The translations under genes and the position numbers were made by a program. Shown piece after piece: positions 2,667 through 4,302 of a stretch of 64,000 bases of DNA (the first letter of the stretch is position 1; every line of letters begins with the position of its first letter). The stretch is from NCBI RefSeq assembly GCF_054482525.1, contig NZ_CM137006.1; one strand, given 5' to 3'. The notes under the pieces were generated by a model, which saw only the letters and a program-made list of their open reading frames with translations, did not search any database and was not told where the DNA came from.

Positions 2667-2851
2667 AAAAAAATGCAACAACTCTTAGGAGACAAGAGAA
2701 TAGTTCTCTCAGGTGTGCTTATCTATCTTATTGAAATAAAATAAATTATGTCGATGATTTGAGGTTGATGACAAACGAAACATAACCTAATGCGATCTGT
2801 GTATGCCGGATAAGGCGCTTGAACTGAACCCCAAAACCTGGACAGTTTCAG

Positions 2852-3574
2852 TTAACCGGCTTTTTGATGCTCAGTCCGGTATTCTACCGGACTGAGTCCC
2901 CCAAGACTGAGTTTTATTCTTTTTTGATTCCAGTAAGTTATGTATTCGTTAACGGCATTTTCCAGCTCTTCTACATTTCTGTAGTCCCGGCGATAGTACA
3001 TTTCTTCTTTCAGGTGACCAAAGAAGTTCTCCATTACCGCATTATCAAGGCAGTTGCCCTTGCGCGACATGCTCTGCACTAACCCTCTGTCCGCCAGGGC
3101 GGACTGATAACTTTTTATCCGGTAATGCCATCCTTGATCACTGTGGAGCAGCGGTTTCTCCCCTTCAGCAAGGCTTTCCAGCCCCTTATTTAACATCCGC
3201 TTCACCAGCTCCTCTGTAGGCCTGCAGGCCGTTTCCCACGCCACGATTTCCCCGTTAAACAAATCAAGTATCGGGGACAGGTACAGTTTTTGTCCGCCAG
3301 CCCTGAATTCGGTGATATCTGTCACCCATTTCTCACAGGGAGCTTCCGCTTTGAACTGCCGCTGAAGGATATTTTCTGCAGCGAGTCCCATATTTCCCCG
3401 GTAAGACCGGTATTTCTTCAGGCGCACAGGAGACTTCAGGCCGAGCTGTTGCATCAGTTTTCGCACCGTTTTGCCACTGAACTTAAGACCTCTTTTCTGA
3501 AGCTCACAATGGATCCGCCGGTACCCATAACATCCCCGGTGTTCATGGAAGATGGAGGCTATGAGCTGTTTCAC
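2852..3574 (-). CDS. IS3-family transposase OrfB (DDE catalytic domain); probably expressed as an OrfAB fusion by -1 frameshift near 3721-3728
   Basis: Integrase-core-like translation (WVTDITE..., HSDQGWHY..., C-terminal ...LSPVEYR); the orfB frame is open upstream of the first ATG. Confidence 0.85.
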   Translation of the reverse strand: MKQLIASIFHEHRGCYGYRRIHCELQKRGLKFSGKTVRKLMQQLGLKSPVRLKKYRSYRGNMGLAAENILQRQFKAEAPCEKWVTDITEFRAGGQKLYLSPILDLFNGEIVAWETACRPTEELVKRMLNKGLESLAEGEKPLLHSDQGWHYRIKSYQSALADRGLVQSMSRKGNCLDNAVMENFFGHLKEEMYYRRDYRNVEELENAVNEYITYWNQKRIKLSLGGLSPVEYRTEHQKAG

Positions 3575-3678
3575 ATCAGCATACTTGTCCTTAGCCTTCT
3601 GCAGTGACAGCTGGTAGTACAGCGTGCTTCTGGCCAGCCCTGCAGCCTTTAACAGGTCAGACTGGCAGTGTCCGCACC

Positions 3679-4209
3679 TCAGGCTCCGGATGACTTTCGT
3701 TTTTTCTCCAGCTCCTGGCGCTTTTTTTCCAGGAGATGCTCCTGCATGGCTTTCAGATATGCATTTTCTGCGCGAAGATAACGCAGCTCATTCTTCATCT
3801 CTTCCGGCGTCATGTTTGCCTCGTTTTCATGGGTATCATCAGAACGGGTCATGCTTTTCTCCTTCCTGCGCCTGATAAAGGCCTCATTACCAGATTTGCG
3901 GTAGCCTTTTATCCAGTTTTTAACCGTGTTGTGGCTGGGAATGTTAAACCGGGCAGCTACCCGGGGTAGAGACTCAGAATGCCCGAGAGCATAAAGAACC
4001 ACGCAAAGTTTATCTTCAGGAGAATAGCTACGCTTGTGTCTGCAATCCAGTGCCCGAGGACCGTGAAGAAGAAAAAGATTAATCCAGTGTGAGAGGCTGG
4101 TGTGAGAAAGTTGAAAGAGTTTTGCCGTAGAAATGATGCCTGCATGACCAGCCAGGTAATGATTTACAGCGGCAAGTTTTACTTCAAATGAATGTTTCAT
4201 AAACTGCAC
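3679..4209 (-). CDS. IS3-family transposase OrfA (helix-turn-helix DNA-binding subunit)
   Basis: 176-aa ORF with a basic, leucine-zipper-like C-terminus; slippery heptamer A AAA AAG at plus 3721-3728 in the 0 frame. Confidence 0.85.
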   Translation of the reverse strand: MQFMKHSFEVKLAAVNHYLAGHAGIISTAKLFQLSHTSLSHWINLFLLHGPRALDCRHKRSYSPEDKLCVVLYALGHSESLPRVAARFNIPSHNTVKNWIKGYRKSGNEAFIRRRKEKSMTRSDDTHENEANMTPEEMKNELRYLRAENAYLKAMQEHLLEKKRQELEKKRKSSGA

Positions 4210-4302
4210 CTTCAGATGTCAGATTATGTCCAACATTTGGGGTGCAGTTCAGCTCGCGCCGCATCCGGCAGGGATAACGCGTACTTTGTCGGCAATATGA
4301 AG

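Follow-up and report, generated by a model that had tools for sequence, protein, structure and literature searches.

Insertion sequences of the IS3 family are about 1.2-1.55 kb in length, end in imperfect inverted repeats of the form 5'-TG...CA-3', carry orfA and an overlapping orfB in the -1 frame that are fused by programmed frameshifting at a heptamer of the A AAA AAG type, encode a transposase with an rve-type DD(35)E core and K or R seven residues beyond the E, and generate target duplications of 3-4 bp. Translation in IS911, IS3 and IS150 yields OrfA by default, an occasional -1 frameshift gives rise to the OrfAB transposase, and a circular copy of the IS is formed. IS1397 of Escherichia coli was reportedly the subject of studies by Bachellier et al. 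in 1997, Clement et al. in 1999 and Wilde et al. in 2001 and 2003. Going by the titles that PMC1525189 cites, its transposition is said to be active in E. coli, and the title of the 2003 study is said to attribute the choice of REP loops to the transposase itself. Its targets, the REPs or palindromic units of E. coli, are extragenic, repeated sequences of about 35 bp that form imperfect palindromes. Insertion specifically into REPs has been documented for this element (main text of PMC1525189 and its Additional file 13; PMC3184786), and up to 11 copies of this element have been counted in a genome by Touchon et al. (PMC7314097).

We analysed a stretch of 64,000 nucleotides from contig NZ_CM137006.1 of assembly GCF_054482525.1 (the window). 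Its segment 2820-4251 is, with a probability of about 95%, an intact and probably transposition-competent IS1397 (IS3 family, IS150 group) lying in the loop of a single REP between the stop codon of msrQ and the zinT promoter (Table 1). The segment was delimited by reading of the sequence and by extraction of the junctions; its first bases are TGAACTGAACCCCAAAACCTGGACA and its last bases TGTCCAACATTTGGGGTGCAGTTCA, and the outer ends read TGAACTG...CAGTTCA. The terminal inverted repeats bear the TG...CA ends and are 84% complementary. An earlier note on this DNA had proposed imperfect repeats of 26 bp; the repeats are indeed present, with a length of 25 nt, position 26 being mismatched. A 3-bp direct repeat, GCT, stands directly before and directly after the IS. 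As for the extent of 1432 bp and the 3-bp duplication claimed in the same note, comparison with E. coli 2014C-3338 and K-12 MG1655, which both lack the insertion, showed that homology to the empty sites breaks off exactly at 2820 and 4251. Because these empty sites carry a single GCT, the IS ends and the duplication are real, and the GCT pair is no chance repeat. No second IS1397 copy was found in the 64-kb window.

Table 1 Features of the IS1397 insertion between msrQ and zinT (positions in the window).
Feature	Position	Strand	Basis
Complete IS1397 copy, 1432 bp	2820..4251	- (transposase genes)	100% identical over full length to RefSeq-annotated IS1397
IRL, inverted repeat at the orfA end, TGAACTGCACCCCAAATGTTGGACA in transposase sense	4227..4251	-	Inverted-repeat search, junction extraction
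IRR, inverted repeat at the orfB end, TGAACTGAACCCCAAAACCTGGACA read inward	2820..2844	+	21/25 positions match IRL
Target-site duplication, copy 1, GCT	2817..2819	.	Single GCT in empty sites
Target-site duplication, copy 2, GCT	4252..4254	.	Single GCT in empty sites
zinT-side half of split REP, TGCCGGATAAGGCGCT	2804..2819	.	Inverted-repeat arms 2804-2818/4256-4270, empty site, fold
msrQ-side half of split REP, GCTCGCGCCGCATCCGGCA	4252..4270	.	Inverted-repeat arms, K-12 MG1655 empty site, fold
orfA, 173 aa, ATG at 4200, stop ending at 3679	3679..4200	-	Pfam HTH_28, residues 8-57 and 64-113
Heptamer A AAA AAG in the orfA phase, predicted -1 slip site	3721..3727 (read 3727-3721)	-	Codon phase from frame 1 translation
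orfB frame (-1 relative to orfA), slip site to stop ending at 2852, catalytic part of OrfAB	2852..3721	-	Pfam HTH_21, rve, rve_2
Inverted repeat in the orfB 3' end, perfect 12-bp arms around a 3-nt loop	2870..2896	.	-22.6 kcal/mol as RNA

The sequences on either side of the IS are complementary to each other (87% over the two arms). In both 2014C-3338 and K-12 MG1655, the empty site reads ...TGCCGGATAAGGCGCT/CGCGCCGCATCCGGCA... with one GCT, which equals the window minus the IS and minus one GCT; the uninterrupted site of 2014C-3338 is ...GTGTATGCCGGATAAGGCGCTCGCGCCGCATCCGGCAGGGATAACG..., and in MG1655 the same unbroken palindrome separates msrQ from zinT, differing at two bases. On the strand that is the sense strand for msrQ and zinT, the restored site is TGCCGGATGCGGCGCGAGCGCCTTATCCGGCATAC, lies extragenically in the msrQ-zinT interval and agrees with TGCCGGATGCGGCGTAAACGCCTTATCCGGCCTAC, which Tobes and Pareja list as the REP consensus of E. 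coli (PMC1525189, Additional file 15). When rejoined, it folds to a hairpin of -22.9 kcal/mol with GCT/AGC within the loop. The empty sites, the match to the consensus and the fold together thus bear out the proposal that removal of the IS restores a REP, and the K-12 comparison suggested along with it revealed the predicted uninterrupted REP in MG1655. Moreover, the REP arm GCCGGATAAGGCG was found again in an intact canonical REP at 43543-43572 of the window, for which the chance expectation is about 0.05; this second REP, GCCGGATGCGGCGTAAACGCCTTATCCGGC, is without any IS.

The coding content of the segment is that of an IS3-family element read on the minus strand. The orfA product has a pair of helix-turn-helix domains and a tail resembling a coiled coil, and exactly this protein is present on more than 1000 contigs in public collections. 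The orfA/orfB layout and the A AAA AAG site postulated before were both recovered, the heptamer sharing the codon phase of orfA, unlike a further A-run at 3705-3699. A -1 shift at this heptamer, built in silico, yields an OrfAB of 449 aa, which is letter for letter the NCBI protein "IS3-like element IS1397 family transposase", and the RefSeq coding sequences on nucleotide-identical copies carry a 'programmed frameshift' flag and have a length matching this OrfAB. The OrfAB sequence scored 387 bits against NCBIfam NF033516 (IS3 family transposase; cut-off 160), covering profile positions 1-369 of 369, and contains the Pfam domains HTH_28 (twice), HTH_21, rve and rve_2. OrfAB has the catalytic triad D295, D355 and E391, with K398 at E+7, and the spacing (60/36) corresponds to DD(35)E+K. 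The length, the TG...CA repeats, orfA with orfB in the -1 frame, the DDE core and the short duplication all agree with the IS3 family, the frameshift being predicted. Downstream of the slip site, no significant RNA structure and no frameshift stimulator were found, the stability there being like that of shuffled sequence (z = -1.0). The inverted repeat inside the 3' end of orfB encodes ...LSPVEYRTE...; it has no adjoining T-run and was not called a terminator in a scan of 2400-4500.

By ISfinder convention, elements with more than 95% nucleotide or more than 98% amino-acid identity are the same IS. The 240-aa orfB open reading frame, whose source name in the public database is 'IS3 family, IS150 group', is identical at 238/240 positions (99.2%) to UniProt Q47310, 'OrfB protein', which we take to be the entry from the original IS1397 record. 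Copies in RefSeq that are 100% identical to the window segment are named 'IS3-like element IS1397 family transposase', and among the matches listed in complete E. coli genomes, all 30 of 30 are annotated as IS1397 family transposase. RefSeq/PGAP naming together with the protein identities, including that of 99% to Q47310, makes a strong, if indirect, case for the name IS1397, in agreement with the IS1397-like identity put forward in the earlier note. We considered whether a different REP-targeting IS3-family element (ISKpn1-like, or an unnamed member of the IS150 group) could merely resemble IS1397, given that several IS3-family elements, such as ISKpn1 and ISPsy8, target REPs (PMC1525189). 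This is extremely unlikely, for OrfAB exactly equals proteins that NCBI names IS1397 family transposase, nucleotide-identical copies are annotated as IS1397 in many RefSeq genomes, OrfB differs from Q47310 at only two residues, and the wide spread in E. coli fits IS1397. The element is an already described kind of mobile element with known behaviour, present as an ordinary chromosomal copy.

By analogy with IS911, IS3 and IS150, a route of transposition can be proposed for this copy. Most ribosomes would end translation at the orfA stop codon, and a minority would slip back by one base at A AAA AAG to produce OrfAB. OrfAB would then join one end of the IS to the other, giving a circle in which the two ends abut (copy-out, paste-in), and this circle would integrate where the target strands are cut 3-4 bp apart, generating a duplication such as GCT. 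Judged from its sequence, the window copy is probably still competent for these steps. Eighteen genomes share the insertion with identical junctions, indicating inheritance within a lineage, and the copy might thus be a structurally complete, immobile relic passed on vertically. Such a relic is unlikely: neither of the reading frames is broken, the slippery site, the DDE residues and the two inverted repeats are all preserved, and the titles cited above point to published IS1397 activity in E. coli. In addition, the window copy differs at 1 of 1432 bases from the copies at the trmL-cysE and caiE-caiF loci, which indicates recent transposition of this sequence variant; overall, copies only 0-1 bases apart were seen at different loci.

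The target specificity of the element was assessed over 14 independent IS1397 sites, namely the window copy, a copy of opposite orientation in the same REP, the copies at znuB-ruvB, trmL-cysE and caiE-caiF, and nine loci from other assemblies. The eight top-matching copies that were fetched represent only two sites, seven being at the trmL-cysE locus and one at caiE-caiF. At 14 of the 14 sites, removal of the IS and one repeat gave a REP-type hairpin with the duplication in its loop. The duplication is GCT in the window and measures 2-4 bp at the 13 other sites, and the restored hairpins have folding energies of -18 to -31 kcal/mol (ten of the 14 sites folded). Relative to the REP, the IS sits in both orientations. 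This pattern is in line with the published descriptions of IS1397 (PMC1525189, PMC3184786). For the window copy, the claim of a REP-targeted insertion is upheld by the empty sites, which place it exactly at the centre of a palindromic unit with a 3-bp duplication. In assembly GCA_900149875.1, two IS1397 copies (loci L018 and L019) are each broken by an IS110-family (DEDD_Tnp_IS110) transposase gene, which in L019 interrupts the IS at about position 1006.

The distribution of the element and the history of the site were examined in 5426 complete E. coli genomes, in which site classes were assigned by junction probes at a coverage of at least 80%, the counts being approximate. The IS1397 query matched 3485 of the 5426 genomes, 1707 of them with a copy spanning 80% or more of its length, and the best match was at least 99% identical in 1414 records. 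Genomes with any match, partial ones included, had a median of one matching place, and the top listed genomes had 5-8. With a probe made of the joined flanks without the IS and one GCT, the msrQ-zinT site was found empty in about 4932 of the 5426 genomes. The window insertion was detected by a probe for its zinT-side junction in 18 genomes, including PCN033, SCU-102 and probably strain 1190. Strain 20AR0479 carries IS1397 at the same GCT in inverted orientation (positions 3569-5000 of locus L005), and this arrangement, with 431 of 5426 genomes, is far commoner than that of the window. About 40 genomes fall in none of these three classes. The absence of IS1397 from K-12, which the earlier note had also asserted, holds at this site, where MG1655 is empty; the K-12-type genomes DH5alpha and AML001_ev03 gave only a flank match to the junction probes, and absence from the whole genome was only partly checked. 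Strain W46, which has the same prophage junction as the beginning of the window, had been considered as a near-isogenic empty-site control and was dropped because its flanking chromosome belongs to a divergent lineage.

From these sequence comparisons, we read the two arrangements as independent IS1397 insertions into one REP, at the same three bases and in both orientations. The use of the same GCT in the same REP would also fit a single ancestral insertion that later inverted in situ, as inversion across the inverted repeats would preserve the junctions. Several observations make this very improbable. Each copy is nearest to variants at other loci, from which it differs by a single base (for the 20AR0479 copy, this is the znuB-ruvB copy of strain S21EC, whose transposase has the same protein accession), whereas the two copies at zinT-msrQ differ from each other by 9 bases (0.6%). 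The IS has also diverged less than the flanking chromosome, the adjacent msrQ flank differing at 17/600 positions (2.8%). Furthermore, the site is empty in most genomes, and inverted repeats that are imperfect and only 25 nt long are a poor substrate for homologous inversion. Two independent insertions, and hence repeat occupation of one REP, are to be expected because the element is loop-specific. A search of the searchable literature for zinT, msrQ and an insertion sequence, covering this site and its occupation in two orientations, found no paper. That different E. coli lineages independently carry IS1397 in this REP, in the two opposite orientations, is offered as a modest addition.

According to the annotation of genomes with identical sequence, msrQ (4303-4938) and zinT (1961-2611) are encoded on the minus strand, as are msrP and the IS genes. 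The msrQ stop codon precedes the insertion by 51 bp, and the zinT start follows it by 208 bp; the placement of the insertion between msrPQ and the zinT promoter had been correctly given. The IS moves zinT 1435 bp farther from msrQ and destroys the REP hairpin downstream of msrQ; the halves are now 1.4 kb apart and, according to the folding, no longer form the -22.9 kcal/mol structure. A Zur-box-like palindrome, ATGTTACAATATAACAT (about 2645-2668), presumably the Zur box of zinT, and the zinT promoter region are intact at about 150 bp from the insertion. Since the IS genes are co-oriented with msrQ and zinT, read-through into zinT is possible, as is the loss of an mRNA-stabilising REP for msrPQ, both of which are purely speculative, as are the changes in msrQ termination or zinT expression raised in the earlier note. 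A functionally important insertion, driving or de-repressing zinT by read-through from the IS or msrPQ, or destabilising the msrPQ mRNA, would be in line with this co-orientation, with the lost hairpin, with the lack of any predicted minus-strand terminator between orfB and zinT (scan of 2400-4500) and with the occupation of the same REP in two independent lineages. We nevertheless think it improbable: target specificity by itself would lead to recurrence, the presumed Zur box and the zinT promoter region are untouched, and the same scan predicted no promoter facing outward from the IS end. The few promoter-like matches in 2400-4500 belong to the native flank and are also present at empty sites. 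Somewhat less probable again is that the msrQ-zinT REP is a recurrent IS1397 landing site with a selectable regulatory effect, in which zinT (zinc and cadmium stress) would be coupled to msrPQ/HprSR- or IS-driven transcription, or the msrPQ mRNA would be shorter-lived. If true, such an effect would help to explain the clone-like group of 431 genomes and the window lineage with the other orientation. For the physiology of metal and oxidative stress, a change in zinT or msrPQ expression would be modestly interesting; nothing here indicates one.

Some further features were observed around the locus. At 2664, an outer position of the Zur-box-like palindrome, the minus strand of the window has G (GTGTTACAATATAACAT as compared with ATGTTACAATATAACAT); this G is common to SCU-102 and PCN033, and A is found in K-12, 1190, 2014C-3338, 20AR0479 and W46. 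Near the left end of the window, the tRNA-Ser gene serU is represented only by its 3' 62 nt (1230-1291), and ARAGORN called no tRNA there. The DNA to the left of 1229 is prophage DNA with a tail-fibre open reading frame at 46-552, corresponding to a 'tail fiber domain-containing protein' in strain W46. The prophage appears to have integrated in serU, and 1230-1291 would be its attachment-site copy. In the related prophage of W46 (locus L016, 1246-1704, outside the window), an IS200/IS605-family tnpA adjoins the tail-fibre genes. K-12 has yodB (cytochrome b561) between zinT and serU, a gene that is not annotated in SCU-102, PCN033, 1190 or W46, and the interval from the serU remnant to zinT in the window (1292-1960) is correspondingly short. 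An Rfam scan of window positions 1-7000 gave no match.

Overall, the locus offers a clean example of REP-loop targeting in which both the filled and the empty site are available, and the insertion is a convenient lineage marker, with 18 genomes having this orientation and 431 the other among the 5426; beyond correct annotation, its import is small. Among the described elements, IS621 of the IS110 family likewise has E. coli REPs as its target (PMC1525189, PMC3184786), but it possesses an unrelated DEDD transposase, has no terminal inverted repeats, and its insertions fall on the 3' side of the REP, beyond the palindrome instead of in the loop (PMC3184786). ISKpn1 of Klebsiella and ISPsy8 of Pseudomonas syringae are closer, being IS3-family elements that insert inside the REPs of their hosts (PMC1525189); they are, however, other species-specific elements with other REP types, whereas the window element is identical to E. 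coli IS1397 proteins. With IS150, IS911 and IS3, it has in common the size class, the TG...CA ends, an orfA (helix-turn-helix and zipper) and an orfB (DDE) connected by a predicted -1 frameshift at A AAA AAG, the DD(35)E+K signature and duplications of 3-4 bp. It differs from them in possessing two N-terminal HTH_28 domains and in target choice, as those elements show little target specificity and its own sampled sites are found only in REP loops. With IS1397 itself, the window element shares a transposase identical to proteins that NCBI names IS1397 family, the two open reading frames with the A AAA AAG frameshift site, insertion in the central loop of REPs and short duplications, and no difference of substance separates the two.
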